Of a DNA stretch of 64,000 nucleotides, positions 1,368 to 17,412 are shown piece after piece. The stretch spans positions 226,392-290,391 of the forward strand of contig JAXMOG010000003.1 of the NCBI GenBank assembly GCA_034670065.1. The letters are read 5' to 3'. How positions within the stretch are numbered: position 1 is the stretch's first letter; each line of letters starts with the position of its first letter. The notes under the pieces were generated by a model. The model was given only the letters and a program-made list of their open reading frames with translations. It made no database searches and was not told where the DNA came from. Position numbers and translations under genes: made by a program. Source of the stretch: Pseudoprimorskyibacter sp. Lineage in GTDB: Bacteria > Pseudomonadota > Alphaproteobacteria > Rhodobacterales > Rhodobacteraceae.

Positions 1368-2188
1368 TGATACGGCGCATGACGCTGGATGAGCTGGCAA
1401 TGGTTCTGGGCTGGGCGCGGGACGAAGGGTGGAATCCCGGTTTGGACGATGCCGCCGCATTCCATGCAGCTGACCCAGATGGGTTCTTTCTGGCCCTGAT
1501 AGATGACACCCCCGTAGCTGCCATATCGGTGGTCAACCATGATGAGAGCCACGCCTTTCTGGGCCTGTACATCTGCTTGCCCGCGTATCGTGGCACCGGT
1601 TGTGGATATGCTCTGTGGCAAGACGCCCTGCGCCATGCCGGTTCGCGATCAGTGACACTGGAAGGCGTGCCCGACCAACAGGCCAACTACATACGGTCCG
1701 GGTTTGCGCGGATCGGCCGTACCATTCGATATAAGGGCGAGGTTTCTGCCGAAAACGAAGCTATCCACGCTGCAACCCCAGACGACGTGCCAGCATTGCT
1801 CAACGCCGACAAAGCGGCGGCTGGCCACGCCCGCCCCGCCTACGCTCAGGCATGGTTTAGCAATTGCGCAACACGACAGACTCAAGTTCTGACACGACCT
1901 ACCGGCGCAATTCAATTTGCCACCTTTCGTAAATGCCATGACGGTCTAAAGATTGGCCCGCTGCACGCCAATGATCGTTCCAGTGCTTTGGCCTTGTTGC
2001 GCGCACGGCCAACACAATTCGGCGATGGGCCGCTGTACATCGACGTACCAGATGGGTCGGCGCTACAGGCACTGGTCATCGAAAACGGGTTTGAACCGGT
2101 ATTTGAGACCGCCAAAATGGTTCTTGGTCGGCCCACAGCCGCGAATCCCCCTGCGTTCTACAGCGTCGCAACACTGGAATTGGGCTAG
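1364..2188 (+). CDS. GNAT family N-acetyltransferase (two-domain, YitH-like C-terminus)
   Basis: GNAT core FLGLYICLPAYRGTGCGYALWQDAL. The start GTG 1364 / ATG 1367 overlaps the GntR stop (GTGATGA). Confidence 0.75.
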   Translation: MMIRRMTLDELAMVLGWARDEGWNPGLDDAAAFHAADPDGFFLALIDDTPVAAISVVNHDESHAFLGLYICLPAYRGTGCGYALWQDALRHAGSRSVTLEGVPDQQANYIRSGFARIGRTIRYKGEVSAENEAIHAATPDDVPALLNADKAAAGHARPAYAQAWFSNCATRQTQVLTRPTGAIQFATFRKCHDGLKIGPLHANDRSSALALLRARPTQFGDGPLYIDVPDGSALQALVIENGFEPVFETAKMVLGRPTAANPPAFYSVATLELG

Positions 2189-2376
2189 TCCGCGAACCGC
2201 GCCGCCCATTGGCGCACTCACCAGACACGCTAACAACACGCCAAACCTGTCGTTCGGCATGCCCAGTCTTTCCGCCAATTGGCCTAAAGAACCAGCTGAC
2301 CACCGCCTTACCTGCCCGAGATCTGCTCAGAACGAAAAAAACATGCGTAAACAATGTGCAATTGCAGCACGCCATG

Positions 2377-2390
2377 TTGCAGCGCAGCAA
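2377..2390. promoter_or_regulatory. FNR/CRP-family (NnrR/Dnr-like) box candidate TTGCA-GCGC-AGCAA
   Basis: TTG-N8-CAA palindrome with a TTGC....GCAA core, centred about 62 nt upstream of ATG 2446. A perfect palindrome TGCAATTGCA lies next to it at 2358-2367. Confidence 0.3.
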
Positions 2391-2445
2391 TGACGATTGA
2401 CCACACGCGGACGTGACTGGTTAAAGCTGTAGCAGCGACCGGACA

Positions 2446-4539
2446 ATGGCGTCCGGGATTATTGAAATGCATGACGCATTTCGATGGGGAGCAGCGAAGC
2501 TCTTAGGCTCTGGCGATCAGCCACAGCCCAGGATTGTTTTGGATGCTCATATGGCAATAGCTGCTCAGATAAATACCCCAGATCACCTTCTTGCTGCCGA
2601 ACTTCCTGTCCTCGTGATTGGAGGCGGCCCGGTTGGCATGCGAGTGGCGCAGCTGCTCAAAAGCGATGGCGTCGAGGTAATGGTGTTAAGCGCCGAACAC
2701 CATCCGCCCTACAACCGCGTTCGACTGACACCGCTTTTGTCCGGTGAGGTACAGTTTGGCGAAATCACCTTGCCACAAAAGACTGATAACGGTGAAGAAA
2801 TTCCGCTGATCTCGGGGCAGCGCGTACTGTCAATTGACCGGGACAATAAGAAAGTCACAACCAGTGACGGGGCGGTTTGGCCCTACTCCAAGCTGGTGAT
2901 TGCCACTGGTTCATCAGCGTTTATTCCCGGTATCGAGGGCAAAGACCTGTCTGGCGTATTTGCGTTCCGGACTGCAGATGATGCGTCGGCGCTGTTGGCC
3001 CGGTCTTTTTCCGCGCGCAAGGTTGCTGTTATCGGCGGCGGATTATTAGGGCTGGAAGCTGCGCGCGGCATGAAGCAGCGTCAGTGCGATGTAACGGTGA
3101 TCGAACACGAAAGCCGGTTGATGCCCCGCCAGTTGGATACCGAGGCCAGCAAACTGCTGGAGACCCGTATTACCGACATGGGCATCGCCGTGCGCACTGG
3201 CACTGCCGTCAAACAGATTGCTGGCACACACAAGGTGACTGGCCTGCATTTTGCCGATCATACGCATCTGGAATGCGACACCGTGATCCTGTGCACCGGC
3301 GTGCGAGCCAATGTTGATTTGGCCAGACAGTCTGGCTTGGCATTCAATCGCGGTGTCATCGTTAACGATCAGATGCAGACGAATGATCCAGACATTTTTG
3401 CCGTGGGCGAATGCGCCCAACATGATGGGCAGATGTATGGATTGGTTGGGCCCGGATACGCCCAAGCCGAAGTCGCGGCCAAGGTCATCGCCGGACAGCA
3501 TGCCGCCTTTCGCGTCAGCCCCCCGGCCACCAAGCTGAAAGTGGTTGGGGCCGATGTGTTTTCGGTGGGCGATGTCGAACAACTGCAAGACATGGTTGGT
3601 GTGCGCCGCCACATCTGGAAGGCCGACGGGCTGTACCGCTGCTTGTATGTTCGGCGCGGGCAACTGGTGGGGGCCAATGCGGTAGGCCTGTGGGATCAGG
3701 CAGGACGCGTACAGGACGCAGCGCATTCAGGCGCAACGATCTATCCTTGGATGATTCACCGGTTTCGCAAGACGGGCGCGATCTGGCTGGACAACAGCGA
3801 AGACTTGGCCGACCTGCCTGACGCAACGACCATTTGCAATTGCACAGGCGTCACATGCGGGCAAATTCGCGGAGCCATCGCGCAGGGCTGCACCGATGCA
3901 CCGGCAATCAGCGCGCGCACGGGTGCGGGCACCGTATGTGGCACGTGCCAGCCTGTTCTGGAAGAACTGGTGAATGCAGGTGGTCCGCCAAAGCCTGTCG
4001 CCTTCTCCAAACCTCTGCTGGCCCTGTCAGGATTGGCCGCGCTAGCCGCACTTATTCCAATTCTGGTGGGCATGGTCCCGCTGCCAAATAGCTTTGACCC
4101 GGACAGCCTGCGCGTTTGGTTGTGGCGGGACAATATCGTCAAACAATGGAGCGGTTTCATCCTGTTGGGCCTGACGATTTCCGCAGCTCTGATTGGTCTG
4201 CGCAAACGCATTCGCCTGATGGACCGGCTGGGCAGCTATGATGGCTGGCGGTTGGTTCATATCGTTCTGGGGGCCATGATCCTTGTTGGATTTCTGGCTC
4301 ATACCGGGTTTCGCATGGGCGCAAATCTGAATTTCATCCTGGGTTTCAGCTTTGTTGCCACACTGATTTTCGGCGCGGCATCAGGCCTGGCCACCGGTGG
4401 CGAACATAAGCTGCGCGAAAAACGAATTGGCACGGCCCGCAAGCCAGCGCGCCGTTGGCCCACATGGTTGCATATTGCAGCGGTGTGGCCCCTGCCCGTC
4501 TTGCTGATGATCCATATCCTGACGGCGTACACATATTGA
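2446..4539 (+). CDS. NirB-N-terminal-type FAD/NAD(P)H oxidoreductase with BFD-like [2Fe-2S] motif fused to a 5-TM, four-histidine (di-heme b-like) membrane domain
   Basis: Two Rossmann motifs (VLVIGGGPVGMRVA; KVAVIGGGLLGLEAA) and FAVGECAQH. BFD-type cysteines are ICNCTGVTCGQ...GTVCGTCQP. The C-terminal about 175 aa has 5 predicted TM helices and H-x13-H in two of them. No siroheme/nitrite-reductase catalytic domain is present. The start is uncertain (ATG 2446, 2467 or 2551). Confidence 0.8.
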   Translation: MASGIIEMHDAFRWGAAKLLGSGDQPQPRIVLDAHMAIAAQINTPDHLLAAELPVLVIGGGPVGMRVAQLLKSDGVEVMVLSAEHHPPYNRVRLTPLLSGEVQFGEITLPQKTDNGEEIPLISGQRVLSIDRDNKKVTTSDGAVWPYSKLVIATGSSAFIPGIEGKDLSGVFAFRTADDASALLARSFSARKVAVIGGGLLGLEAARGMKQRQCDVTVIEHESRLMPRQLDTEASKLLETRITDMGIAVRTGTAVKQIAGTHKVTGLHFADHTHLECDTVILCTGVRANVDLARQSGLAFNRGVIVNDQMQTNDPDIFAVGECAQHDGQMYGLVGPGYAQAEVAAKVIAGQHAAFRVSPPATKLKVVGADVFSVGDVEQLQDMVGVRRHIWKADGLYRCLYVRRGQLVGANAVGLWDQAGRVQDAAHSGATIYPWMIHRFRKTGAIWLDNSEDLADLPDATTICNCTGVTCGQIRGAIAQGCTDAPAISARTGAGTVCGTCQPVLEELVNAGGPPKPVAFSKPLLALSGLAALAALIPILVGMVPLPNSFDPDSLRVWLWRDNIVKQWSGFILLGLTISAALIGLRKRIRLMDRLGSYDGWRLVHIVLGAMILVGFLAHTGFRMGANLNFILGFSFVATLIFGAASGLATGGEHKLREKRIGTARKPARRWPTWLHIAAVWPLPVLLMIHILTAYTY

Positions 4540-4541
4540 CC

Positions 4542-6044
4542 ATGCAAATATCCCGCAAACATATCCTGTGGACCTTGTGGTTGGTCGGTACGCTGATCGC
4601 AGCGGTGGCTGGTGCCAAGACGCTCTTCGTGGCGGGTGATCAGACGGCCCTGATGCCGGGTAACACAACCGGCGTGCATCACCAGTTCGAAATTGCCTGC
4701 GCCACGTGCCACACGTCTGATGTATTTGCCGATGTTGGCAAGGTCCGCAAGGACATCAACAAAACCTGCCTGACCTGCCACAAGGATGAGCTGAAAGCCT
4801 CGGACGACAGCCACCCGAAGAAGAAATTCACCAATCCCCGCATGGCCCCGTATTGGGAACAGGTCGATGGGCGCTATTGCACCACCTGCCATATCGAACA
4901 CGTGCCCGAAGATACGCTGACCAGCATGGTTACTCTGCCCGGCGATTTTTGTGTCGCCTGCCATTCAGAGGGTGAACAAGACGTCCGCGTGAACCGGCCC
5001 AGCCACGAAGGGCTGACCTTTGACACCTGTGCATCTGCCGGCTGCCATAACTTTCACGACAATCGCGCACTCTATGAGGACTTCCTAGTCAAACACGGAA
5101 ATGAGCCGTGGCTATTGCCGGAAACAATTGTGCCCGCCGCTGCGCTGGCGCGTGATCGTGCGCGTGCCAAAAGCAGCGCTGAAATCGATGCCTATCTGGC
5201 GGCGATCACCGCCCCCACACAGACCGTTGAAGAAAAGGTTGCCCATGACTGGGCTGCGTCCGCACATGCCGCTGCAGACGTTGGCTGCGGTGGATGCCAT
5301 GCCCCCGAGGCGGAAACCGAAGAACAAATAGCAGCAGATTGGATCGAGTCCCCAAGCGAAGCCATTTGCGCAGATTGCCACAAGTCCGAAGCCAAGACAT
5401 TTGCGCTTGGCCGCCATGGCATGCGCAGACATCCCAAAATCGCAAAGCCACGGGATGGCGCATCCGCACTGTCCGTTCTTGGCATGGACGAGCCCCCAGA
5501 ATTCTTGATGTCGGTCTTGGCCAAATATCTGGATGATCCTGCGCCACCGCCCATGATGTCCACCGCCGAGGCGCGCGTCCCCCTGCGCCCCGAAGCGCAT
5601 GGGCAAGACCTGACATGTAGCACCTGTCACAAACCGCATGAGCAAAACCTGGAGTTTGCCGCAGTGGGTGCCTGCTTGACCTGTCACAATGATGAACACA
5701 GCCTGGCCTATGAAAGCAGTCCCCATTTCGAACTGTATCAAGCTGAGCTGAGCGGCGCCCTGCCCCCCGGAAGCGGAGTCACCTGCGCCACTTGCCATAT
5801 GCCCAAGACTGAAAAATCCGGGCGTGTAACGTCGAACCACAACCAGAATGACACTCTTCGTCCCAATGAAAAGATGATCCGCCCCGTCTGCATGTCATGC
5901 CACGGCTTGGGCTTTGCAATTGATGCGCTGGCGGATCCCGCCCTCGTCTCAAACAACTTTTCAGGACAACCAGATCGCCACATCGAAAGCATCGATTGGG
6001 CGTTAAAACGCGTGGAACCACCCGAGACTGACGCCAATCAATGA
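4542..6044 (+). CDS. Membrane-anchored or secreted multiheme cytochrome c (10 CxxCH + 1 CxxxxCH)
   Basis: ATG lies 2 nt after the upstream stop. The N-terminal hydrophobic segment is ILWTLWLVGTLIAAVAGA. Heme motifs are CATCH, CLTCH, CTTCH, CVACH, CASAGCH, CGGCH, CADCH, CSTCH, CLTCH, CATCH(MPK) and CMSCH. The ORF-track start 4455 is rejected because it overlaps the upstream gene. Confidence 0.85.
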   Translation: MQISRKHILWTLWLVGTLIAAVAGAKTLFVAGDQTALMPGNTTGVHHQFEIACATCHTSDVFADVGKVRKDINKTCLTCHKDELKASDDSHPKKKFTNPRMAPYWEQVDGRYCTTCHIEHVPEDTLTSMVTLPGDFCVACHSEGEQDVRVNRPSHEGLTFDTCASAGCHNFHDNRALYEDFLVKHGNEPWLLPETIVPAAALARDRARAKSSAEIDAYLAAITAPTQTVEEKVAHDWAASAHAAADVGCGGCHAPEAETEEQIAADWIESPSEAICADCHKSEAKTFALGRHGMRRHPKIAKPRDGASALSVLGMDEPPEFLMSVLAKYLDDPAPPPMMSTAEARVPLRPEAHGQDLTCSTCHKPHEQNLEFAAVGACLTCHNDEHSLAYESSPHFELYQAELSGALPPGSGVTCATCHMPKTEKSGRVTSNHNQNDTLRPNEKMIRPVCMSCHGLGFAIDALADPALVSNNFSGQPDRHIESIDWALKRVEPPETDANQ

Positions 6045-6093: not shown

Positions 6094-6669
6094 ATGTATA
6101 TGAAGATGGGAAAATTAAAAGCGGTAGCCCTAAGCGGCATGTTGGCCTTGGGCGCGATGCAGCCCGCTACAGCTGAAGAAGGCCTGGATTACCAAACCGT
6201 GTCCGACCTTTTGCACCTTGTTATGAGCTCTGACCGTACCGTCTATACGCGCATGATCGTTAACCGTCTGGCTGTTCAGGAAAAAGTCATCACGGCCTCT
6301 GAGCACTTTGTTGACGAAAAAGCTCTGGTTCTGCCCGCGCAGATGTTCCGCTTTGGCTCTGAAATGGTTGCCGAAGAAACCGATGCGTTCTCGTATTCGT
6401 TGCTGTCGCTTTGGCCCATCAACAAGCAAAACGCGCCTACAACCGATCTGGAAAAAGAAGGTCTGACCTACATCGCCGAAAACATTGGCGAGAACTTCTA
6501 TGGCCGTGAAGAGCTGGGCGGAGTCGAGTACTTCACCGCTGTTTACCCAGACATCGCCGTGGCCGAGGCCTGCTCATCTTGCCACAATGATCACAAAGAC
6601 TCCCCCCGCACCGACTTTGAAGGTGGTGATGTAATGGGCGGCGTCGTCATTCGTATTCCGATTGACTAA
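6094..6669 (+). CDS. Periplasmic Tll0287-like (DUF3365) c-type heme protein
   Basis: AGGAG lies 8 nt upstream of the ATG. Signal peptide is MKMGKLKAVALSGMLALGAMQPATA. There is a single C-terminal CSSCH. Overall it resembles the DUF3365/Tll0287 PAS-like heme family, judged from memory of the family. Confidence 0.7.
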   Translation: MYMKMGKLKAVALSGMLALGAMQPATAEEGLDYQTVSDLLHLVMSSDRTVYTRMIVNRLAVQEKVITASEHFVDEKALVLPAQMFRFGSEMVAEETDAFSYSLLSLWPINKQNAPTTDLEKEGLTYIAENIGENFYGREELGGVEYFTAVYPDIAVAEACSSCHNDHKDSPRTDFEGGDVMGGVVIRIPID

Positions 6670-7125
6670 ATGAAACGCTACCTCGGCGCGGCGGTCTTCG
6701 CCGTGTTCCCATTCTTGACCCTCGAACAGGGGCTGGCGGATACCACGCAAGCCTCTGCTCGGGGGCTTGACGGTTTTGTAACCGTCGATCGGCTGAGCGA
6801 TCCTTCAGATCCGCTGCTGCAACAAGGGCGTGCCGTCTGGGCTGACACCTGCCAGAACTGCCACGGCGGAAACAAAGCCACTGGTGCCCCCAAAATCACC
6901 TCCACTCGCGCCTGGGCTCCACGAATTGATCAGGGGATGGCCGTTCTTATCGACCATGCCATCAACGGTTTCGTTGGGCCGCGTTACACCCAAATGCCAC
7001 CACGTGGCGCCAACCCAGACCTGAGCGATGAACAGGTTTCTGCTGCTGTTGCCTTTATGGTTTGGGCCAGCGGTGGGGCGGATGTCGCGTTGGAATACAC
7101 TCAAAAAATGAAAGGGATGGAATAA
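6670..7125 (+). CDS. Class I cytochrome c (c5/c555-like), periplasmic
   Basis: ATG abuts the upstream TAA. It has a signal peptide, one CQNCH, and a distal ...YTQMPPRG (Met ligand region). Confidence 0.8.
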   Translation: MKRYLGAAVFAVFPFLTLEQGLADTTQASARGLDGFVTVDRLSDPSDPLLQQGRAVWADTCQNCHGGNKATGAPKITSTRAWAPRIDQGMAVLIDHAINGFVGPRYTQMPPRGANPDLSDEQVSAAVAFMVWASGGADVALEYTQKMKGME

Positions 7126-7538
7126 TGACACCTGAACAGATTGATCTGGTTCAATCCACATTCAAGAAAGTTGCCCCAATCGCCGATACAGCGGCCGATA
7201 TCTTCTATGACCGCCTGTTCGAGATCGCACCGGACGTGCGCGGTCTGTTCCCAGAAGTGATGACAGACCAGAAAAAGAAGCTGATGCAAATGATCGGCAT
7301 TGCTGTGAACGGCCTGCGTGATCTGGATGCGATTGTGCCTGCGGTTCAAGATCTTGGCGCACGTCACCGTGGCTACGCTGTGAAAGAAGAGCATTATGAT
7401 GTGGTCGGCGCGGCACTGCTCTACACACTGGGCATAGGTTTGGGCGATGACTTCACCCCCGAAGCCGAAGCCGCCTGGGCCGAAACCTACGGCCTGCTTG
7501 CAGGTGTCATGATAGAGGCGCAGCAGGCAGCAGCCTGA
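7125..7538 (+). CDS. Single-domain globin (sensor-globin/protoglobin-related), cytoplasmic
   Basis: MTPEQIDLVQSTFKKVAPIADTAADIFYDRLFEIAPDVRGLF...LGARHRGYAVKEEHYDVVGAALLYTL is a typical bacterial globin-domain pattern with a proximal His in ARHRGY. There is no signal peptide. The start overlaps the upstream stop (TAATG). Confidence 0.8.
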   Translation: MTPEQIDLVQSTFKKVAPIADTAADIFYDRLFEIAPDVRGLFPEVMTDQKKKLMQMIGIAVNGLRDLDAIVPAVQDLGARHRGYAVKEEHYDVVGAALLYTLGIGLGDDFTPEAEAAWAETYGLLAGVMIEAQQAAA

Positions 7539-7639: not shown

Positions 7640-10600
7640 TCAGACGAAGATCATTTCGTCTGTGATCGTAGCCAAATCGGTGTATTCGAACGTAATCGTT
7701 GTACCTTGATCGGCGAACACAACATTCGTACCCGTCTGAACCATGTTGGCAATCGCATCCGCGCCAGTGGAGTACCCGAAGCCTTCAAACTCCATGAAAT
7801 CCCAAACTTCCAGGTTGCTGACAGAGTTCGTGGCGCCATCAGCGACATCAAACACAAACATATCTGCCATTATGCCACCTGCCAGATGGTTGGTGCCCGA
7901 ACCGGCATCCAGTTCATCATTGATGCCCTGGCCACGAATCCAGCCTTTGACCGAAATCGCCGTATTGTTGATGAATTCCTGCGACTGCGAGAAGCCTTGA
8001 ACAACAGCTTCGCGCGTTCCGCCGCCAGCCAATTGCGCCACCCAGGCATTCAGACCGCCTGCATCAGGCGCACGGTTCAGAACGTTTTGGTAAAGCAGCG
8101 TTACAAAGGCCGTATCGTCCAACGAACCATAGGTGTTCTGGAATTCGGTACTGCCAACGAAGCCGCTGACAACGGACAAGAACGACGTGCCGTCACCCAA
8201 AAACTCTGTCCAACCCAAGAAACCGCCTATGTCTGGCGCGCGATCCAGTGTTGCCTGGTACAGGCGGAACACATCGTCGGAATAGCTGCTCTGGCTATAC
8301 GTTTCGATAAAGCCGGCAGCGCCCGCCGTGGTGTTGTTGACGAATTCCGTACTTTCCGAGAAGCCCAGAACAACGCTTTCGCGCGACGCGCCGCCGTCCA
8401 GTTGACCGACCCAGGCATTCAAACCACCGGTATCCGGAGCACGGCCCAGAACGTTCTGGTAGAGCAATGTTACAAAGCCGGTGTTATCCAGCGAACCGTA
8501 TGCCGCCTGGAATTCCGCACTGCCAACGAAGCCTGCAGCGGCTTGCGTCAACGAGCCAGTGCCCTCACCCACATACTGCGTCCAACCTTCGTGACCGGCC
8601 GCATCTGGCGCACGGTTCAGCGTGGCCTGATACAAGCGGTACACTTGGTACGCTTCGGTCATGTGAGCTGCGATATCGAACGCATCACCATACAGGATGT
8701 CGTTGCCGCCATCGCCGTAGATTTCATCCGCGCCCTCTTCACCCGAAATCGTATCGTTGCCGATATTGCCTTCGATGAAGTCATCAGAGACATCGCCGGA
8801 CAGACTGTCGTTGCCCGCATAGCCCATGATATCATCTTCGGCTGGCGTTCCGGCCGAGGTGACACCGGCATATCCCAGCGAGGAGGTCAGAACGGTCTGG
8901 TCGGTAAAGACCAGTTGCTCAATCCCGTACAATTCGTCTGTGCCATCAGCAGATGTAATCTGAACGGCGCCATTCGATGCTGTGCCAACCGTGACAGAGG
9001 CGAATGTGACATTGAACACGGCTTGGTCGATACCCGTTCCACCAACCAAAGTGTCGTTGCCGGACGAACCGGTCAGCACGTCATTGCCGCGCCCACCTGT
9101 CAGGGTGTCATTGCCGGCAGCACCGGTCAGCGTGTCATTGCCTTCCAAACCTTCGAAGGTCACACCCGTTGACCCGGTGGTGATCATGCTGTCGCTGAAT
9201 TCCGAACCACGGATTTGTTCAATATTTGCCAGTGTGTCCGTATCGCCAAAGGTGTCGGTTACAACGCCTGTGGTCAGGTTGGCCACGATACCGCTGGTGC
9301 CGCCAAAGTCACCTTCGTTCTCATAGCTCACGATGTCCCAGCCGTTGCGGCCATCAATCGTGTCATCCCCGGCCATACCGCTGAATCCTTCGCGATGCGT
9401 CAGGGCAGAACCGATCAGATAGTCATCATCCTGTGAGGCTTCAAAGAATGTCGCATAGGTGAAGGTATCGCTGAGCGACGTGGCATCGCCACTAACCGCA
9501 GTACCCAGACCCTGGCCACCAACAGCGATCGTCAGACCACCAACGCCACCCACATCCGCATAGCTTAGCGACAGGCCTTCGCCTGCGGCAAACCAACCTG
9601 CGTGACCGATGATGGTGTTGTTGCCAAGGCCTGACGCAACCATGTCAGCGCCGTTGCCGGTGGTGCCACCTTGCGAGGCATCAATGACATCGTCACCGTC
9701 GCCACCAATCAGTTCGTCTTTCCCATCACCGCCGGTCAACGTGTCGTTGCCGTCGTCACCGTCCAGAAGAACGTCAAAGCCCACGTTAAACGCGCTGATC
9801 ACGTCGTCATGCGTGGTACCTGTGATCTGCTCGACATTTGTGATCGTGTCAGTATCGCCATGGGTGTCGACAACTGTATTGGCCGCCAGCGTTGCGGTGA
9901 TGGCCATGTCTGGTCCAGTCCAGGCAGATTCCCAACGATAGGAAACTTCATCCCAGCCGTCGCCGCCGTCGATCGTGTCGTTGCCGCCATGACCTTCGAA
10001 GGTTTCGCCCACCAACATGTCGTCGCTGCCGGTGATCAAGTCTGCGTCCTGCGATCCGCCAAAGGAACGCGTGTAAGAGAAACTGTCGTTCACGCTGTTG
10101 TCGCCAGCAACGATAGTACCCGCGCCGTTGATACCGGAGTTGATGGTCAGACCACCTACACCACTGATATCACCATAGCTGATTTCGATACCGCCACCCA
10201 TGGCCCACAGGCCAGAGTGACCGATGATCACGTTGTTACCCAGACCCGGCGTAACAAAGTCGCCGCCCTTCTGGCCTGCAACGGAACCGGCCGACGCGTC
10301 AATCAGGTCATCGCCGATCGAGCCGTCCATGTTGTCTTGGCCGTCACCACCGCGCAGGGTGTCATTGCCCGTGCCGCCGCGCAAACTGTCGTCGCCCGTA
10401 CCACCGGATGCATCCAGCAAGTCATCGCCTGCGCCGCCGGTCAGGTTGTCGTCACCAATGGTCGAGATCAGCGTGTCGTTGCCAGTACCACCCTGCAGAC
10501 GGTCATCCGCAGAAGCGTCTGTCATGCTGTCATTGCCGTCAGAGCCCAGAATGTCTTCGACGTTTGTCAGCGTCTGCGTAAAGGCCACGCCATTATAGCT

Positions 10601-11344
10601 GCCGGTTGCCGTGCCCGCTGAAAGGTCAACCACCAGATTGGTGATCAGCGCATTGCTGAAGCTGACTTCGTCAAAGCCCGCACCACCATCAATGGTGTCG
10701 TTGCCGCCAAAGCCAGAGAACTCATCACGGTTGGCTGTACCAACAAAGTTGTCGGCGAATGTCGTGCCGTCCAGCTGGATTGTACCGGACCCAGATTGCG
10801 TGACGGTTTCAGCATTGCCAAACCCATCATTTGCCACAACACCGGTTGCCAAGTTGACGCTGGCCCCTTGCGTCGCCGCGCCGCTGGTACCAACGCTGAA
10901 GTCCAGATTAACGATAGTGTAAGTGTTCGTAGTGAACGTGTAGCTGTCTGCCCCTTCGCCACCAATAAAGATGAAGAAGCCATCATTGCCGGGCGTCAGG
11001 GAAAAACTGTCCGCTCCGGTTGTGCCGATCACTTCCAGCCCTGCGCCGGTACGCGCCCGGTATTCAGCAGCCAGTTGGACATCAACCAAAGTGTCGGTGC
11101 CGCTCGTCTTTGTGACAGTACCCGTATTGGCACTGGTGTTCAGCGCCACTGCAATCGGGCCAGTTGTGGCCGAATAGTCCAGAACGTAGCTTGAGGAAGA
11201 GGTCGACGAAGAAAATTCAATCTGGTCGTTCCCGGCAGATCCGTTGATCGTATCTCCACCAGAGTTCGAAACCGGTTGGATCGTATCGTCACCCGACGTT
11301 CCAAACAGATCGTCGCCTCCGGTTGTGCCAGCAATAACAGCCAT
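7640..11344 (-). CDS. Giant secreted RTX-type calcium-binding repeat protein with two C-terminal DUF4214 repeats
   Basis: 1234 aa with many GGxGxD nonapeptide runs (GGAGNDTLTGGRGNDVLTGSSGNDTLVGGTGID). An about 190-aa module is duplicated (IIGHSGLWAMGGGIEISYGD... / IIGHAGWFAAGEGLSLSYAD...). Two DUF4214-like units are present (LYQATLNRAPDAAG...LLYQNVLGRAPDTGGLNAWV). There is no Cys and no N-terminal signal peptide. An AAGGAAG SD precedes the ATG. Confidence 0.9.
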   Translation of the reverse strand: MAVIAGTTGGDDLFGTSGDDTIQPVSNSGGDTINGSAGNDQIEFSSSTSSSSYVLDYSATTGPIAVALNTSANTGTVTKTSGTDTLVDVQLAAEYRARTGAGLEVIGTTGADSFSLTPGNDGFFIFIGGEGADSYTFTTNTYTIVNLDFSVGTSGAATQGASVNLATGVVANDGFGNAETVTQSGSGTIQLDGTTFADNFVGTANRDEFSGFGGNDTIDGGAGFDEVSFSNALITNLVVDLSAGTATGSYNGVAFTQTLTNVEDILGSDGNDSMTDASADDRLQGGTGNDTLISTIGDDNLTGGAGDDLLDASGGTGDDSLRGGTGNDTLRGGDGQDNMDGSIGDDLIDASAGSVAGQKGGDFVTPGLGNNVIIGHSGLWAMGGGIEISYGDISGVGGLTINSGINGAGTIVAGDNSVNDSFSYTRSFGGSQDADLITGSDDMLVGETFEGHGGNDTIDGGDGWDEVSYRWESAWTGPDMAITATLAANTVVDTHGDTDTITNVEQITGTTHDDVISAFNVGFDVLLDGDDGNDTLTGGDGKDELIGGDGDDVIDASQGGTTGNGADMVASGLGNNTIIGHAGWFAAGEGLSLSYADVGGVGGLTIAVGGQGLGTAVSGDATSLSDTFTYATFFEASQDDDYLIGSALTHREGFSGMAGDDTIDGRNGWDIVSYENEGDFGGTSGIVANLTTGVVTDTFGDTDTLANIEQIRGSEFSDSMITTGSTGVTFEGLEGNDTLTGAAGNDTLTGGRGNDVLTGSSGNDTLVGGTGIDQAVFNVTFASVTVGTASNGAVQITSADGTDELYGIEQLVFTDQTVLTSSLGYAGVTSAGTPAEDDIMGYAGNDSLSGDVSDDFIEGNIGNDTISGEEGADEIYGDGGNDILYGDAFDIAAHMTEAYQVYRLYQATLNRAPDAAGHEGWTQYVGEGTGSLTQAAAGFVGSAEFQAAYGSLDNTGFVTLLYQNVLGRAPDTGGLNAWVGQLDGGASRESVVLGFSESTEFVNNTTAGAAGFIETYSQSSYSDDVFRLYQATLDRAPDIGGFLGWTEFLGDGTSFLSVVSGFVGSTEFQNTYGSLDDTAFVTLLYQNVLNRAPDAGGLNAWVAQLAGGGTREAVVQGFSQSQEFINNTAISVKGWIRGQGINDELDAGSGTNHLAGGIMADMFVFDVADGATNSVSNLEVWDFMEFEGFGYSTGADAIANMVQTGTNVVFADQGTTITFEYTDLATITDEMIFV

Positions 11345-11926
11345 AACTCTTCCTTTTCCCTACGAATTTAAACGCAATGTTTCTTTAAACGATTCGTGGC
11401 CCATTGCCATAAGTTACGGCAACGCCGCAGCGAATAGTCGCCGAAGCTATGATGCTATCTTCCGAACGTCGGCAAGACCATACGCGGTTATGTCGCCCTG
11501 CGCCAATTCCGCCGCATTTCGTGTAATCCTGCGAAACAGTAAGCAGGTTGGCGCGGATTCTTGCATCAAATGGCCGAAATCGAGGTCGGTTTTTTGATCA
11601 AAACTGATCAAAAGCCGACCAATTGGTTGGCGCAAGAGCTGCATACGATTCGAGCAATCACCGCAAATCCGCCTCATTTTCACAGGTCAACTCGCCCAAT
11701 TGTTGGGCGAATGCAAAAATAACGCCCACCATTTAAGCATTTACACCCAAATACAGCATCTGAAATGCATGTCAGGGTGCCCCATCGTCACCTCACGCCT
11801 CAATCTCCGGCTCGACCCGATCACGCCGATTGGGCAGCGCCGACCAAGGGGGGAATTCCTGACTGCGGCGCTAATATAACCCGCTCATCACTACTGATGC
11901 GCGGATGTCATGGGGACTTACGACTT

Positions 11927-13210
11927 ATGAAAACCAACAAAATTCTCGGCGCCGTTTCGGCACTGGCGATGACCGCAGCCGCACCAGTGTTTGCTGAATG
12001 CGCAGACCCGATCAAAGTGGGTGTCCTGCACTCGCTGTCCGGCACAATGGCCATTTCGGAAACAACTCTGAAAGACACCATGCTGATGCTGGTCGACCAG
12101 CAAAACGCAGCTGGCGGCCTGCTGGACTGTGAAATCGAAACCGTTGTCGTTGACCCGGCATCTGACTGGCCACTGTTCGCTGAAAAAGCGCGTGAACTGC
12201 TGACCGTACATGATGTCGACGTGATCTTCGGTAACTGGACATCGGTTTCGCGCAAATCTGTTCTGCCCGTCATCGAAGAACTGAACGGCCTGCTGTTCTA
12301 CCCGGTCCAGTACGAAGGTGAAGAAAGCTCCAAGAACGTCTTCTACACCGGTGCTGCTCCCAACCAACAAGCCATCCCAGCAACCGATTACTTCCTGGAA
12401 GAATTGGGCGTTGAGAAATTCGCTCTGCTGGGCACGGACTATGTATATCCGCGCACCACAAACAACATTCTGGAAAGCTACCTGAAGTCCAAAGGCATTC
12501 CAGCAGAAGACATCTTTGTGAACTACACCCCGTTCGGTCACTCTGACTGGGCCACCATCGTTGCTGACGTTGTTGCCCTGGGCGAAGACGGCAAGCAGGT
12601 TGGCGTGATCTCCACCATCAACGGTGACGCAAACATCGGCTTCTACAAAGAACTGGCCGCTGCCGGTATCTCTGCAGACGACATTCCTGTTGTTGCATTC
12701 TCGGTGGGTGAAGAAGAACTGTCCGGTCTGGACACATCCAACCTGGTTGGTCACCTGGCGGCCTGGAACTACTTCCAGTCGGCAGACACCGAAGCCAACG
12801 CAGAATGGGTTAAGTCCTGGAAAGCCACCATGGGCGAAGAGCGTGTAACCAACGACCCAATGGAAGCTCACTTCATCGGCTTCAACATGTGGGTTAACGC
12901 GGTCAAAGACGCCGGCACCACCGATGTCGACGCGGTTCGCACAGCCATGTACGGCCAGGAATATCCAAACCTGACCGGTGGTACAGCTGTCATGCTGCCA
13001 AACCACCACTTGGCCAAGCCAGTTCTGATCGGTGAAATCACCGCTGAAGGTCAGTTCGACATCATCAGCCAGACCACCGAAGTTCCGGGCGACGCCTGGA
13101 CCGACTTCCTGCCTGAATCGGCTGTTCTGAAGTCGGATTGGAAAGACCTGGGTTGCGGTATGTACAACACCGAAACCAAAAGCTGCGTTCAGATCAAATC
13201 CAACTACTAA
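11927..13210 (+). CDS. urtA: Urea ABC transporter substrate-binding protein
   Basis: Signal peptide MKTNKILGAVSALAMTAAAPVFA, a LivK-like fold, and the following urtBCDE genes. The ORF-track start 11765 is rejected as an upstream extension. Confidence 0.9.
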   Translation: MKTNKILGAVSALAMTAAAPVFAECADPIKVGVLHSLSGTMAISETTLKDTMLMLVDQQNAAGGLLDCEIETVVVDPASDWPLFAEKARELLTVHDVDVIFGNWTSVSRKSVLPVIEELNGLLFYPVQYEGEESSKNVFYTGAAPNQQAIPATDYFLEELGVEKFALLGTDYVYPRTTNNILESYLKSKGIPAEDIFVNYTPFGHSDWATIVADVVALGEDGKQVGVISTINGDANIGFYKELAAAGISADDIPVVAFSVGEEELSGLDTSNLVGHLAAWNYFQSADTEANAEWVKSWKATMGEERVTNDPMEAHFIGFNMWVNAVKDAGTTDVDAVRTAMYGQEYPNLTGGTAVMLPNHHLAKPVLIGEITAEGQFDIISQTTEVPGDAWTDFLPESAVLKSDWKDLGCGMYNTETKSCVQIKSNY

Positions 13211-13288
13211 TCTGACGTAACTATCCGGCGCGCGGGGGGCCCATTGGCTTCTCGCGCGCCACACCTTCTGCAAAGGCCCTCATACAAA

Positions 13289-15253
13289 ATGTATTCGATG
13301 CTGCGCGCCCTGCTTCTTGCGCTTCTGGTTGGCCTATGGCTTCCCGTTGCTGCCCCCGCCCAAGACCTTCAATCGGTTTTGCAAGCCCATCAGGCCCAGG
13401 TGGCCAAACCTTCCCGCAAATCAGTTTCCCCGGTTCTTGAGAGCCTCGCTGCCTCGGGCCTGCCTTCGGTGACTGACTTTCTGGAACGCTGGCAGAACAA
13501 GGAACTTTATGTTCGCAAAGCCGACGGCCTGTTTTATTACGCGGAACCAGATGGCGATGTTTTTACCCTGACCGATCCGGGAACCGGTGAAACCGCTGGA
13601 ACAGCCGCCAAAAGCGAGCTTGCCCAGATCAAACCCAATGGTGGTGTGCGCAAAGCCATTTCGGAAGCCTTGGTCCAGTTTCAGCTGTCCGACCCAGATA
13701 TCAACCGCCGCAGCTCTGCCGTGGACGCTATTGCACGCTCCATGAATGCAGATCAGCTGGCCCCACTGACCGCCGCAATCGAAAATGAGCCTGACCCCGC
13801 GTTGAAAGCCCGCAAAATCCGCGTGGCCAATATGTTGGCGGCAAGCTTTGCCAAAACCACCGAAGAACGTGTTGCCGCTATCAAGGGATTGGAAGGTGAC
13901 CTGTCTGTCGATTCACGCGGCGTTTTGAACCTGATCCTGACAAAAGGTGACCCAGCCATAGCACCGTTTCCCGATGGAGCGATCGTCGCGCAAGACCTGA
14001 CGCCCGGAACGGACGAATTGTCCGTAGACGCCGCTTATGACCTGATGGTCGCGGCTGGAAAGGCCCTGCCGATCCTTAGCGCCGAGGACCGCCTGGCGAT
14101 CCTGCGGGACAATGTTGAAGACGGACGCGTTGGCGGCATTCTGGTCGGTCAACTGAACACACAAGACGGCCGCGACCGCGCCTATACCGCCCTTGTCGAC
14201 AGTGGCGTTATCCAAGACGAAGGTTGGAATGGCCCGGCGACATCCAAAGCCGAATATGTTGCCACGGAAAAATTCGCCTCGCTCTACAGCGAGTCCGACC
14301 CGGCGGTCATCGAAGCCGCCCGCACAACGCTGGACGGCATCGAAACGCGGGTCAAACTAAACCAGTTTGGTGATTTGGCACTGGATGCCCTGTCGCTCGC
14401 CTCTATCTATTTCCTCGCGGCCATTGGTCTGGCCATCACCTTTGGCGTGATGGGCGTTATCAACATGGCCCACGGCGAATTCATCATGATGGGCGCCTAT
14501 ACCGGCTACGTCGTGCAACAATTCGTTCCGAATTACACCGCCTCGATCATCGTCGCCCTGCCTCTGGCCTTTGCTGTGACCTTCGCCGCAGGTGTGGCGA
14601 TGGAACGGTTGGTTATTCGGTGGCTGTATCACCGGCCCCTTGAAACTCTGTTGGCAACCTTTGGTATATCTATCGCGCTGCAACAGCTGGCCAAGAACAT
14701 CTTCGGCACACAAGCCCGCCCGCTGACTTCTCCCAGCTGGTTGGATGGTGCGTGGATCATCAACGACGTCATTCAAATCGCCTATATCCGTATCGCGATC
14801 TTTGTCTTGGCAGTGATCTTCCTTGGGCTGATCCTGTTTATCCTGAAACGCACACGGCTCGGCCTGGAAGTGCGCGCGGTGACACAAAACCCCGGCATGG
14901 CGGCATCAATGGGTATCAACCCTGACCGCATCAACATGCTGACCTTCGGTCTGGGCTCTGGCATTGCTGGCATCGCCGGCGTCGCCATCGGGCTATACGC
15001 CAAGGTGACATCGGAAATGGGCGCTGACTATATCGTGCAAAGCTTCATGACAGTGGTCGTGGGCGGTGTTGGCAACGTTTGGGGCACATTGGCCGGGGCA
15101 ACCATGATCGGCACGCTGCAAAAAGGGATCGAGTTCCTGAACCCATCCAACACGCTGGCGGCACAAACCTATATGATCCTGTTTATCATCCTGTTCATCC
15201 AATTCCGGCCCAAGGGCATTGTTGCCCTCAAAGGCCGCGCAGCAGGAGATTGA
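13289..15253 (+). CDS. urtB: Urea ABC transporter permease, long form with about 350-aa N-terminal periplasmic extension
   Basis: Signal-like MYSMLRALLLALLVGLWLPVAAPAQ. The LivH-type permease core starts near LSLASIYFLAAIGLAITFGVMGVINMAHGEF. Confidence 0.85.
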   Translation: MYSMLRALLLALLVGLWLPVAAPAQDLQSVLQAHQAQVAKPSRKSVSPVLESLAASGLPSVTDFLERWQNKELYVRKADGLFYYAEPDGDVFTLTDPGTGETAGTAAKSELAQIKPNGGVRKAISEALVQFQLSDPDINRRSSAVDAIARSMNADQLAPLTAAIENEPDPALKARKIRVANMLAASFAKTTEERVAAIKGLEGDLSVDSRGVLNLILTKGDPAIAPFPDGAIVAQDLTPGTDELSVDAAYDLMVAAGKALPILSAEDRLAILRDNVEDGRVGGILVGQLNTQDGRDRAYTALVDSGVIQDEGWNGPATSKAEYVATEKFASLYSESDPAVIEAARTTLDGIETRVKLNQFGDLALDALSLASIYFLAAIGLAITFGVMGVINMAHGEFIMMGAYTGYVVQQFVPNYTASIIVALPLAFAVTFAAGVAMERLVIRWLYHRPLETLLATFGISIALQQLAKNIFGTQARPLTSPSWLDGAWIINDVIQIAYIRIAIFVLAVIFLGLILFILKRTRLGLEVRAVTQNPGMAASMGINPDRINMLTFGLGSGIAGIAGVAIGLYAKVTSEMGADYIVQSFMTVVVGGVGNVWGTLAGATMIGTLQKGIEFLNPSNTLAAQTYMILFIILFIQFRPKGIVALKGRAAGD

Positions 15254-15442
15254 TGTGATGTTCAGGTTCTTAGCCCACTGCCCGCACTATTCTGCCCAAG
15301 CGTCCTCAAACGCCACAGACCAGCGGCAGAAAAGCCTAACCGGGGCATCCGCCCTGCACCCTGCAACGGCCAGCGCAAACCAGGCGCTCGTGCCAGCTGT
15401 GTCCGACACCCGGCGCAACGCAATGTCTAAAGGGAAACAACA

Positions 15443-16672
15443 ATGAACCAAGGTTTCCTGTCCAAAAACCCATCTGTGCTGTGGTTTCTAGCAGCGCTTG
15501 GTCTGTTCACATTGGGCGTTACAGTTCTGGCCGATGCCACCGGCACCGGGGCGATCTCTACCTCCTTCGTCAAGACGTTGGGCAAAACGCTGTGCCTGTG
15601 CCTGATCGCCATCGCAATGGATGTGGTCTGGGGCTATTGCGGTATCCTAAGCCTGGGCCACTTCGCGTTTTTCGGGATTGGCGGCTATGCCATCGGCATG
15701 TGGCTGATGTACGCCCGAACACGCGACATCGTCACTGAAAATTTGGCCAACAGCGTCATCCCTCCCACCACGCAAGAAATCGAAGATGCCATCGGCACAC
15801 AGATTTTCGGGGTTGTGGGATCCAGTGATTTCCCTTGGATTTGGGCCTTTTCAGACTCGCTGTTTTTGCAGCTGATGATGGTTGTTTTGCTGCCCGGTTT
15901 GATTGCCTTGGTTTTTGGCTGGCTGGCCTTCCGCAGCCGCGTGACCGGTGTCTACCTGTCAATCCTGACCCAAGCGATGACCTTGGCGCTGGCGCTTTAC
16001 CTGTTTCAAAATGACAGCGGGCTTCGTGGCAATAACGGCCTATCTGGCTTGCAGAACATCCCAGGCTTTAATGACGTGCCACAGGCGCAAATCTCTATTG
16101 CGTTCTTTTGGGCATCGGCCCTGGCATTGGGGCTGGGCTATGTGATCTTTGCCTGGGTCATGTCCGGCAAAATGGGCAGTGTTGTGCGCGCCATTCGCGA
16201 TGACGAAGCTCGCGTGCGCTTCCTTGGCTATCACGTCGAAAGCTACAAACTGTTTGTCTTTACCCTGACAGCCATCATCGCCGGGATTGCCGGCGCGCTG
16301 TACTACCCGCAGGCTGGCATCATCAACCCGGCCGAAATCGCGCCGATCGCCTCGATCTATCTGGCGGTCTGGGTCGCAATTGGTGGACGTGGGCGCCTGT
16401 ACGGGGCAGTTATTGGCGCGGCCTGTGTTTCGCTTCTGTCCAGCTGGTTTACCGGCGGCGGTGCGCCCAACATCAACCTGGGCTTCTATCTGGTGCAATG
16501 GACTGATTGGTGGCTTGTACTGCTTGGCCTGAGCTTTGTGGCTGTCACCCTGTTCTTCCCCAAAGGTATTGGCGGCCTGTTCGACTTGATATCGGCCCGT
16601 ATGGTGCCAGACCGCGTGGGGGACTATGGCCCTGACAAAGGCGCACTGCGCAAAGAGGAGGGCTCAGAATGA
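15443..16672 (+). CDS. urtC: Urea ABC transporter permease
   Basis: LivM-type permease (GILSLGHFAFFGIGGYAIGMW) in urt operon context. Confidence 0.9.
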   Translation: MNQGFLSKNPSVLWFLAALGLFTLGVTVLADATGTGAISTSFVKTLGKTLCLCLIAIAMDVVWGYCGILSLGHFAFFGIGGYAIGMWLMYARTRDIVTENLANSVIPPTTQEIEDAIGTQIFGVVGSSDFPWIWAFSDSLFLQLMMVVLLPGLIALVFGWLAFRSRVTGVYLSILTQAMTLALALYLFQNDSGLRGNNGLSGLQNIPGFNDVPQAQISIAFFWASALALGLGYVIFAWVMSGKMGSVVRAIRDDEARVRFLGYHVESYKLFVFTLTAIIAGIAGALYYPQAGIINPAEIAPIASIYLAVWVAIGGRGRLYGAVIGAACVSLLSSWFTGGGAPNINLGFYLVQWTDWWLVLLGLSFVAVTLFFPKGIGGLFDLISARMVPDRVGDYGPDKGALRKEEGSE

Positions 16673-17409
16673 GCACACTTCTAGAAGTTTCCGGCGTCTC
16701 AGTGTCGTTTGACGGGTTCAAAGCCATCAACAACCTGTCGCTTCAGATCGCCGAACCAGAGCTGCGCGCCGTGATCGGCCCCAATGGCGCGGGCAAGACT
16801 ACCTTCATGGATATTGTCACCGGCAAAACAAAACCCGACGAAGGCCGCATCATCTGGGGCGAAAAATCTGTCTCGCTGCTGGGCAAATCAGAAAGCCAGA
16901 TCGCGCGTTTGGGAATTGGCCGAAAGTTCCAAAAGCCCACTGTGTTTGAGGCACAAACCGTGCGTGAAAACCTGGCGATGGCGCTGAAAAACCCGCGCGG
17001 TCCGTTTGACGTTCTGATGTATCGCAAAACACCCGAAGGCGCCGCACGGATCGAAGAAATCGCCGAAGAGATCGGCTTGTTGGGCGAACTGCCCCGCTCT
17101 GCCGGAGAACTGAGCCACGGACAAAAGCAGTGGCTGGAAATCGGTATGCTGCTGGCCCAAGACCCGCGCTTGCTGCTGGTTGACGAACCCGCCGCTGGCA
17201 TGACGCCAACCGAACGTGAAAACACCACGGACATGCTGACGCGCCTTGCTCAAACCCGCGCGGTGATTGTGGTGGAACACGATATGGAATTCGTCCGCCG
17301 CCTGAATTGCAAAGTTACTGTGCTGCACGAAGGCTCGGTTCTGGCCGAAGGCAGTTTGGACCATGTCACAAACAACAAAGACGTCATCGACGTCTATCTG
17401 GGGCGCTAA
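16669..17409 (+). CDS. urtD: Urea ABC transporter ATP-binding protein
   Basis: Walker A GPNGAGKTT, signature LSHGQKQWLEI, and ATGA overlap with urtC. Confidence 0.9.
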   Translation: MSTLLEVSGVSVSFDGFKAINNLSLQIAEPELRAVIGPNGAGKTTFMDIVTGKTKPDEGRIIWGEKSVSLLGKSESQIARLGIGRKFQKPTVFEAQTVRENLAMALKNPRGPFDVLMYRKTPEGAARIEEIAEEIGLLGELPRSAGELSHGQKQWLEIGMLLAQDPRLLLVDEPAAGMTPTERENTTDMLTRLAQTRAVIVVEHDMEFVRRLNCKVTVLHEGSVLAEGSLDHVTNNKDVIDVYLGR

Positions 17410-17412
17410 AAG

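Follow-up and report, generated by a model that had tools for sequence, protein, structure and literature searches.

The NADPH oxidases and ferric reductases (NOX/FRE), among them the bacterial enzymes SpNOX and CsNOX5, join a cytoplasmic flavin dehydrogenase, fed by reduced nicotinamide adenine dinucleotide or its phosphate (NAD(P)H), to an electron-exporting membrane domain within one polypeptide chain, with two helices each supplying two histidines ~13 residues apart that stack two b haems. The cytochrome b of the bc1 and b6f complexes carries H-x13-H pairs on two helices of its bundle. A further group comprises small membrane proteins of bacteria whose four central histidines are highly conserved, namely the DUF4405-like proteins, FezC, and PepSY proteins (FoxB), with haem b binding shown experimentally for FezC and for DUF4405 proteins, in the latter via the four central histidines (PMC11334425). 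Moreover, Méheust et al. (bioRxiv 10.1101/2021.01.07.425746) have suggested that those MsrQ-like and PepSY-like proteins of bacteria which carry NAD-binding domains draw on NAD(P)H from the cytosol. Here we describe a gene at positions 2446..4539 of a 64,000-nucleotide stretch of DNA (hereafter the window) from Pseudoprimorskyibacter sp. (contig JAXMOG010000003.1, positions 226,392 to 290,391), which probably encodes an exporter of electrons from NADH to the periplasm. The encoded protein works like NOX/FRE and the NAD-binding MsrQ-like and PepSY-like proteins, yet belongs to none of them on the features tested.

The 697-residue protein consists of a NADH:ferredoxin-reductase-type flavoprotein binding flavin adenine dinucleotide (FAD), a BFD [2Fe-2S] domain, and a C-terminal membrane module of five transmembrane helices (TM1 to TM5), arranged as follows.

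2446..4539, + strand: open reading frame for the whole fusion protein, 697 residues (open reading frame list and translation; an identical frame is called on public contigs)
2608..3726, + strand: cytoplasmic FAD/NADH flavoprotein with two dinucleotide-binding domains, residues 55-427 (Pfam, TIGR02374, Foldseek)
3829..3975, + strand: BFD-like [2Fe-2S] domain, residues 462-510, ligands Cys464, Cys466, Cys498, and Cys501 (Pfam PF04324, Foldseek)
4006..4536, + strand: membrane module, residues 521-697, predicted di-haem b-type cytochrome (AlphaFold2, hydropathy, positive-inside rule)
4006-4068, 4132-4209, 4237-4305, 4327-4398, and 4453-4533, + strand: TM1, TM2, TM3, TM4, and TM5 respectively (AlphaFold2 and hydropathy)
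4258..4302, + strand: H-x13-H of TM3, with His605 (codon 4258) towards the cytoplasm and His619 (codon 4300) towards the periplasm
4471..4515, + strand: H-x13-H of TM5, with His676 (codon 4471) towards the cytoplasm and His690 (codon 4513) towards the periplasm

The membrane module provides the most telling evidence. AlphaFold2 secondary structure and a hydropathy scan place its five helices at residues ~521-541, 563-588, 598-620, 628-651, and 670-696, with the model of the BFD and membrane parts reaching a predicted local distance difference test score (pLDDT) of 89.8 and a predicted TM-score (pTM) of 0.83, and the full-length model a pLDDT of 91.4 and a pTM of 0.75. An earlier note on this DNA, made from the letters and their translations, had quoted two of these helices, numbered them helix 3 and helix 5, and located two histidines 13 residues apart in each; the quoted sequences, WRLVHIVLGAMILVGFLAHTG (first) and WLHIAAVWPLPVLLMIHILTAY (second), are exact in the translation of 2446-4539, the four codons and both spacings are equally so, and the numbering agrees with the five predicted helices. 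The same note had seen FAD/NAD(P)H Rossmann domains and a CxC...CxxC BFD motif upstream, which the Pyr_redox_2 and Fer2_BFD matches described below bear out. It had further proposed an alignment of homologs and a topology prediction as checks, and these gave, respectively, four essentially invariant histidines across sets of 25, 176, and 60 sequences, and, by charge analysis, histidine pairs in register with no incompatible placement on opposite faces.

Across the membrane domains of 176 representatives of clusters at 50% identity, His605, His619, His676, and His690 are present in 176/176, 176/176, 175/176, and 176/176 sequences respectively. All four are likewise invariant in 25 relatives with identities down to 32%, and in 60 full-length homologs of 32-50% identity, with a fifth histidine (His654) being variable. 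Two or more H-x13-H pairs arise in 0.3% of 200,000 shuffles of the 182-residue C-terminal domain (P ~0.003), conservation being the stronger argument against chance. The TM3 pair is followed by a conserved HTGFRxGxN motif, and a WPxP kink between His676 and His690 is nearly invariant (Trp and both Pro each at least 90% conserved); the periplasmic HTGFRxGxN motif and the kink are candidates for contacts with haem propionates or a partner protein. The family is sizeable: a full HMMER search of 1.84 billion representatives returned 768 members, counted as representatives of clusters at 50% identity, for E ≤ 0.001, and 171 for E ≤ 1e-30. The majority measure 640-720 residues and show the same fusion.

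The predicted topology is N-in and C-out, because loops 2 and 4 are positive, loop 1 is negative, and the N-terminal flavoprotein carries no signal peptide. Averaged over the 176 sequences, the net charge is +1.2 after TM2, in addition to the RKR that ends this helix, +2.65 after TM4, and -1.24 after TM1. In this topology TM3 and TM5 each lead from the cytoplasmic to the periplasmic face, with His605 and His676 lying 7-8 residues from the cytoplasmic ends of their helices and His619 and His690 at the periplasmic ends, at equal depth. This register is consistent with two bis-His haems stacked across the membrane, one in each leaflet of the model, and by analogy with known di-haem cytochromes we infer that the four histidines bind two b haems.

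The module itself represents an unmodelled family. No Pfam family reaches its cut-off for residues ~520-697, and PDB sequences gave no match to the membrane-module profiles (alignments A2 and A5), even at E ≤ 10. Below threshold, the module and its relatives resemble only di-haem membrane cytochrome families in Pfam, namely DUF4405, Ferric_reduct, and Ni_hydr_CYTB. Ni_hydr_CYTB (PF01292) is seen at 14.6-18.7 bits against a cut-off of 30.1 (E 0.0015-0.028), the window protein having an E of 0.0015. DUF4405 (PF14358), the best Pfam similarity of the module's relatives, appears in 6/14 and 5/28 of these (best 23.9 bits against 26.7, E 6.3e-5), with no match in the window protein itself, and Ferric_reduct (PF01794) in 3/14 and 2/28 (best E 2.4e-4, 21.6 bits against 28, profile positions 8-114 of 121), with no match in the window membrane domain even at E ≤ 10. 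The bridging relative P0238 reaches 26.2 bits with PF01292, and hhalign aligns it to the family with a probability of 91% over TM2-TM3, both histidines included; its last helix likewise bears H-x13-H. From these profile comparisons the module would be at most a distant relative of the MsrQ/DUF4405/cytochrome b561 class.

The two cytoplasmic parts are more readily assigned. Pfam places Pyr_redox_2 at residues 55-341 (E 1.8e-63) and Rubredoxin_C at residues 360-427 (E 2.8e-11), and the flavoprotein is of the NADH:[2Fe-2S]-ferredoxin/rubredoxin reductase type, the counterpart of the N-terminal half of NirB. With the full-length model as query, Foldseek aligns residues ~55-450 to putidaredoxin reductase, TodA, and BphA4 (E ~1e-33 (2e-33), TM-score (target) 0.84-0.88, ~400 aligned columns), in agreement with phmmer against the PDB (E 1e-36 to 1e-31). 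The Fer2_BFD domain (PF04324) scores 44.5 bits against a cut-off of 26 and contains the CxC...CxxC motif (codons 3835, 3841, 3937, and 3946), with a TM-score (target) of 0.81 and a root mean square deviation of 1.7 Å to Pseudomonas aeruginosa Bfd (6e6r) in Foldseek; all four cysteines are invariant in the 60 full-length homologs. The FAD/NADH fold and the BFD domain are clearly homologous to those of NirB, NorW, putidaredoxin reductase, BphA4, TodA, and Bfd. Putidaredoxin-reductase-type enzymes hand single electrons from NADH to Fe-S carriers, and the carrier in this protein is, by analogy, presumably the fused BFD domain. The task of splitting the NADH hydride into single electrons for an Fe-S carrier is the same as in NirB and the NADH:ferredoxin reductases; unlike these, the window protein has neither a sirohaem domain nor a soluble ferredoxin partner, its Fe-S domain being tethered to a membrane cytochrome. 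NADH rather than NADPH is suggested as the donor because an acidic residue ("VIE") is conserved after the second Rossmann strand. Translation from ATG 2446 gives a 57-residue leader ahead of the GGGPVG FAD motif; since homologs begin ~20-30 residues before GGGPVG, the true start may instead be ATG 2551 (Met36). No signal peptide is found on the flavoprotein N-terminus whichever of the two starts is used.

Downstream of the fusion lies a cluster of four genes, which was compared across 36 genome loci bearing the fusion, with the counts covering those loci that extend far enough.

4542..6044, + strand: partner gene, 500-residue periplasmic undecahaem cytochrome c with an N-terminal membrane helix (Pfam Cytochrom_c3_2, Paired_CXXCH_1, partial C552)
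6094..6669, + strand: periplasmic Tll0287-like (sCache_heme) c-haem protein with a signal peptide (Pfam PF11845, E 5.5e-19)
6670..7125, + strand: accessory periplasmic mono-haem cytochrome c (Pfam Cytochrome_CBB3, Cytochrom_C; 27/32 loci)
7125..7538, + strand: last gene of the cluster, for a cytoplasmic single-domain globin of the HGbI/neuroglobin/Vitreoscilla type (Pfam Globin, E 3.8e-16; 28/32 loci)

The hosts of the fusion are mostly Rhodobacteraceae (Thalassococcus, Pelagimonas, Tropicibacter, Actibacterium, Epibacterium, Tritonibacter, Donghicola, and Jannaschia), with Hwanghaeella, Minwuia, Roseibium, Kordiimonas, and the gammaproteobacterium Halochromatium among the others. A homolog of the undecahaem cytochrome follows the fusion directly in 35/35 genome loci, with identities of 38-69% over genome loci and the variant loci described below. 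This cytochrome carries ten CxxCH motifs and one CX4CH (C163ASAGCH), and its 11 motifs together with 11 further histidines are each at least 95% conserved in 36 homologs; its N-terminal helix carries conserved Trp10 and Trp13. A catalytic multihaem enzyme is disfavoured, with no CxxCK motif present in the protein, the 11 motifs matched by 11 extra histidines, and the likeness to octahaem (and pentahaem) nitrite reductases confined to ~60-70 residues; judged by its motifs, the protein looks more like a membrane-anchored, all-bis-His wire than an enzyme. The CX4CH, CASAGCH, lies at window positions 5028..5048 (residues 163-169) and appears in distant homologs as CAAAGCH, CNNAGCH, and CATAGCH, with one relative having a CX3CH (CRGACH).

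The Tll0287-like gene is present in 32/32 loci and is the most conserved of the cluster, with 62-92% identity across loci and genera. Its product contains no cysteine outside its CSSCH motif, and the His/Cys haem ligation of Tll0287 is therefore impossible, the distal Cys ligand being missing. Distant versions (L042 7857-8462 and L044 7139-7744) are lipoproteins that likewise have no cysteine outside CSSCH. The sCache_heme family, to which this Tll0287-like protein belongs, was defined recently, and "redox-related roles" have been ascribed to its stand-alone members (bioRxiv 10.64898/2026.02.01.703092); the protein encoded here may be the functional end-point of the electron chain. The globin matches PDB entries 3s1i and 3ubc with E ~1e-28. 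The genes of the cluster are tightly spaced or overlapping (window junctions 4539/4542, 6669/6670, and 7123-7127), an arrangement that suggests translational coupling. At TGATG (7123-7127) the stop codon of the mono-haem cytochrome c shares its final base with the ATG of the globin.

Relatives of the membrane module occur in other architectures.

L041 704-3559 (metagenomic contig): P0075, EF-hands, BFD, and an FNR-like FAD/NAD reductase fused to the module
L038 6001-9042 (metagenomic contig): P0128, three cyclic nucleotide monophosphate (cNMP)-binding domains, BFD, and an FNR-like reductase fused to the module
L040 6001-7185: P0038, a bacterial GPP34 (Golgi phosphoprotein 3-like) domain fused to the four-His module
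P0193 and P0157: the membrane module standing alone

The next gene in P0075, P0128, P0038, and P0193 encodes a homolog of the undecahaem cytochrome (38-51% identity, with the CX4CH in 3/4), and the P0157 locus (L044) retains just a 124-residue, two-haem fragment of this cytochrome. A Tll0287-like gene follows in 3/5 variant loci, including those of stand-alone and EF-hand forms. The domain content of P0075 and P0128 points to versions gated by Ca2+ and by cyclic nucleotides, which recalls NOX5; one of the two is named "nitric-oxide synthase" by one source. P0238, more remote, is a separate 297-residue H-x13-H cytochrome-b-like subunit with faint Ni_hydr_CYTB similarity, flanked by an 844-residue protein combining Pyr_redox_2, cNMP-binding, and 4Fe-4S domains and by a 673-residue, 10-haem cytochrome. 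This three-gene unit (L045/L046 3467-8920) adjoins ccm cytochrome-maturation genes. The same pair of module and multihaem cytochrome is thus joined to NAD(P)H-flavin reductases of two non-homologous types, both of which bring an Fe-S carrier, and this argues for a module that takes electrons from cytoplasmic Fe-S centres and passes them to the periplasmic cytochrome. Furthermore, as the module and its multihaem partner also occur without a fused reductase, the flavoprotein is not obligate; the conserved core is the membrane module plus the undecahaem cytochrome, and the cytoplasmic reductase is an exchangeable input module.

Domain content, the invariance of the ligands, a topology consistent with bis-His pairing, and strict linkage to a multihaem cytochrome gene are established. 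The reading that we judge probable is that the gene encodes a single-polypeptide transmembrane electron exporter, a reading in which haem occupancy, the outward direction of electron flow, independence from quinones, and the terminal reaction are what we infer. In such an exporter NADH would be oxidised in the cytoplasm by the putidaredoxin-reductase-type FAD domain, with single electrons passing from FAD to the fused BFD-type [2Fe-2S] cluster and on to an inner haem b near the cytoplasmic face, ligated by His605 of TM3 and His676 of TM5. From there they would cross the membrane to an outer haem b near the periplasmic face, ligated by His619 and His690, to be handed to the membrane-anchored undecahaem cytochrome c encoded 3 bp downstream, whose own recipient would be the haem-Cache protein, the mono-haem cytochrome c, or another periplasmic acceptor. 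Export of electrons from inside to outside dissipates membrane potential, as in NOX, so that a role in the reduction of a periplasmic or external substrate, in detoxification, or in redox balancing would be more likely than one in energy conservation.

Some results weigh against NADH-driven export. In Foldseek searches with the model of the BFD and membrane parts, the membrane part has no significant match, with nothing below E 0.5; NarI and cytochrome b6 appear at E ~3 with TM-scores of ~0.25-0.3, hence no fold is assigned. Comparison by hhalign with Escherichia coli MsrQ (probability 0.1%) and YodB gave no similarity, these single-sequence targets making for a weak test. Additionally, the module and multihaem partner are also found with the non-redox GPP34 domain or with no fused domain, in which case electrons must enter otherwise. 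The core of these reductase-less versions can be fed another way, possibly by quinol, so that the module may hold a quinone site. This keeps alive an alternative in which the four-His module reacts with quinones as a cytochrome b comparable in function to NarI, FdnI, CybB, or the CbcL/CymA class, and the core is a quinol:cytochrome c oxidoreductase. The flavoprotein fusion would then be an NADH:quinone reductase, or a second entry point beside the quinone pool. Many small di-haem cytochromes b are quinol dehydrogenases, the module has weak similarity to Ni_hydr_CYTB, and both the stand-alone and the GPP34-fused modules keep the multihaem partner with no NAD(P)H reductase fused or adjacent. However, three independent reductase inputs (NirB-type, FNR-type, and the separate Pyr_redox_2/4Fe-4S subunit), each with an Fe-S carrier, are hard to explain if quinol is the normal donor, and no quinone-site motif was identified in the module. 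We judge a quinone-coupled role rather unlikely.

Neither the direction of flow nor the nature of the ligands is readily reinterpreted. All of the cofactors are reversible in principle, and the short stretch of the multihaem protein that resembles octahaem and pentahaem nitrite reductases would suit electrons running from a low-potential periplasmic donor through the multihaem cytochrome, the b haems, the [2Fe-2S] cluster, and FAD to NAD+. We regard this as highly improbable, with reduction of NAD+ (~-320 mV) against the membrane potential demanding a donor of very low potential, the cluster holding no dehydrogenase for such a donor, and the hosts being mostly aerobic marine heterotrophic Rhodobacteraceae. 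That the histidines are structural or bind another metal, leaving the module as an anchor or sensor for a cytoplasmic reductase serving the globin, is very unlikely. A cytoplasmic globin at the end of the cluster would need a reductase, yet invariant H-x13-H pairs on two parallel helices in register are how cytochrome b and NOX are arranged, all weak family matches are to di-haem cytochromes, and the globin is missing from 4/32 loci and from the distant variants, whereas the multihaem partner is always present, if as a fragment at the P0157 locus. The source names of homologs are just "NAD(P)/FAD-dependent oxidoreductase", "hypothetical", and, for JGI fragments, "nitrite reductase (NADH) large subunit", and are generic or wrong. 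The last of these names is accompanied by a strong match of the window protein to the NirB model TIGR02374 (E 4.7e-121), but this match is limited to model positions 2-468 of 794, at 405.6 bits against a cut-off of 578.35, and since it stops there the protein has the electron-input half of NirB and lacks the sirohaem catalytic half. Positions 469-794 are unmatched, Pfam finds no NIR_SIR sirohaem/[4Fe-4S] domains in the fusion protein, and the membrane module stands in their place; that the gene encodes a nitrite reductase large subunit is refuted by this domain content and has next to no chance of being correct.

Taking the protein as an NADH-driven exporter, its resemblance to NOX/FRE lies in the single chain joining a cytoplasmic dehydrogenase to an exporting membrane domain and in the two paired-histidine helices, the haems being predicted here, with the EF-hands and FNR-like reductase of P0075 adding a likeness to NOX5. 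The order of domains is reversed, however, with the dehydrogenase at the N-terminus of the window protein, and this dehydrogenase is of the putidaredoxin-reductase/NirB type rather than a C-terminal FNR-like domain, FNR-like domains being limited to the variants P0075 and P0128. Furthermore, a [2Fe-2S] BFD domain is placed between flavin and haem, there are five membrane helices compared with six, and PF01794 is confined to sub-threshold matches in a few relatives. The acceptor is an 11-haem cytochrome c, in contrast to the O2, Fe(III), MsrP, or flavinylated proteins of NOX/FRE and MsrQ. The DUF4405-like proteins also differ in having six helices (PMC11334425) to the five of the window protein, whose module is fused to a NADH flavoprotein/Fe-S unit, and the genomic context of the window protein, a multihaem cytochrome c and an sCache_heme protein, is unlike the ApbE/flavinylation or ferrosome genes of DUF4405-like proteins and FezC. 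The window module shares its H-x13-H pairs on two helices of the bundle with the cytochrome b of bc1/b6f, and CbcL and its relatives likewise combine di-haem b modules with multihaem cytochromes of the c type for electron transfer between membrane and periplasm. No sequence or structural match to bc1/b6f, CbcL, CymA/NrfH, or NarI/FdnI was detected, however, and these systems are tied to the quinone pool, whereas the window protein has its own NADH input.

The earlier note had described the protein as following NOX-like logic built from different parts, and had not recognised the domain combination as characterised. The former holds for the dehydrogenase, which is of the putidaredoxin-reductase type and not FNR-like, but may not fully hold for the membrane module given its weak DUF4405, Ferric_reduct, and Ni_hydr_CYTB matches. 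The latter agrees with our own search of the literature, in which full-text queries turned up no account of the fusion, of its membrane family, or of the operon; most subscription journals lay outside this search, so it is not proof of novelty. Electron transfer from a flavin through two b haems to the other side of a membrane is a known principle; the novelty lies in the parts, in the relay by an Fe-S cluster, and in the obligatory undecahaem partner.

A NADH-dependent source of extracellular superoxide has long been sought in Roseobacter-clade and other heterotrophic bacteria. A more far-reaching proposal, which we consider distinctly unlikely, is that the family constitutes a quinone-independent NAD(P)H-to-periplasm export machine convergent with eukaryotic NOX, including Ca2+ (EF-hand) and cyclic-nucleotide-gated versions, whose undecahaem/haem-Cache output reduces some small oxidant in the periplasm or outside the cell. 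Among the candidate oxidants O2 would be the most interesting, yielding superoxide, in which case the system would be the source that has been sought. Alternatively the oxidant could be Fe(III), or else nitric oxide (NO) or a different nitrogen oxide, to which the Cys-less haem-Cache protein and the linked globin both point.

Two short motifs were considered in the region upstream of the gene. A single FNR/NnrR-type box, TTG-N8-CAA at ~2377-2390, was rejected as a conserved regulatory site, being absent from most of 23 other loci. K-mer enrichment over window positions ~2188..2446 and the equivalent regions of the 23 loci yielded a GCAAYGNCG-like 9-mer in 14-15/24 loci at one mismatch, with no consistent position, symmetry, or clear palindrome. 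Beyond the cluster, and convergent with its end, 7640..11344 (- strand) encodes a 1234-residue protein with RTX calcium-binding repeats and four DUF4214 domains. This is followed at 11765..18108 (+ strand) by an ATP-binding cassette transporter cluster of the urea/branched-chain-amide type, with a Peripla_BP_5 binding protein, two BPD_transp_2 permeases, the first having an N-terminal extension of ~370 residues, and two ATPases.

Textbook routes from cytoplasmic NADH to periplasmic cytochromes pass through the quinone pool. If the proposed pathway is correct, the path from NADH through FAD, [2Fe-2S], and two b haems to 11 c haems would be a direct bypass that consumes membrane potential, and would realise the design principle of the NADPH oxidases largely with other parts. 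The misleading annotation "nitrite reductase large subunit" is corrected, and stand-alone sCache_heme (Tll0287-like) proteins gain a candidate physiological partner. The modular inputs, whether NirB-type, FNR-type with EF-hands or cNMP-binding domains, or none, suggest a regulated, general-purpose unit of membrane wire and multihaem cytochrome, and as the family is not rare and is present in cultured marine Rhodobacteraceae, its function is genetically testable.

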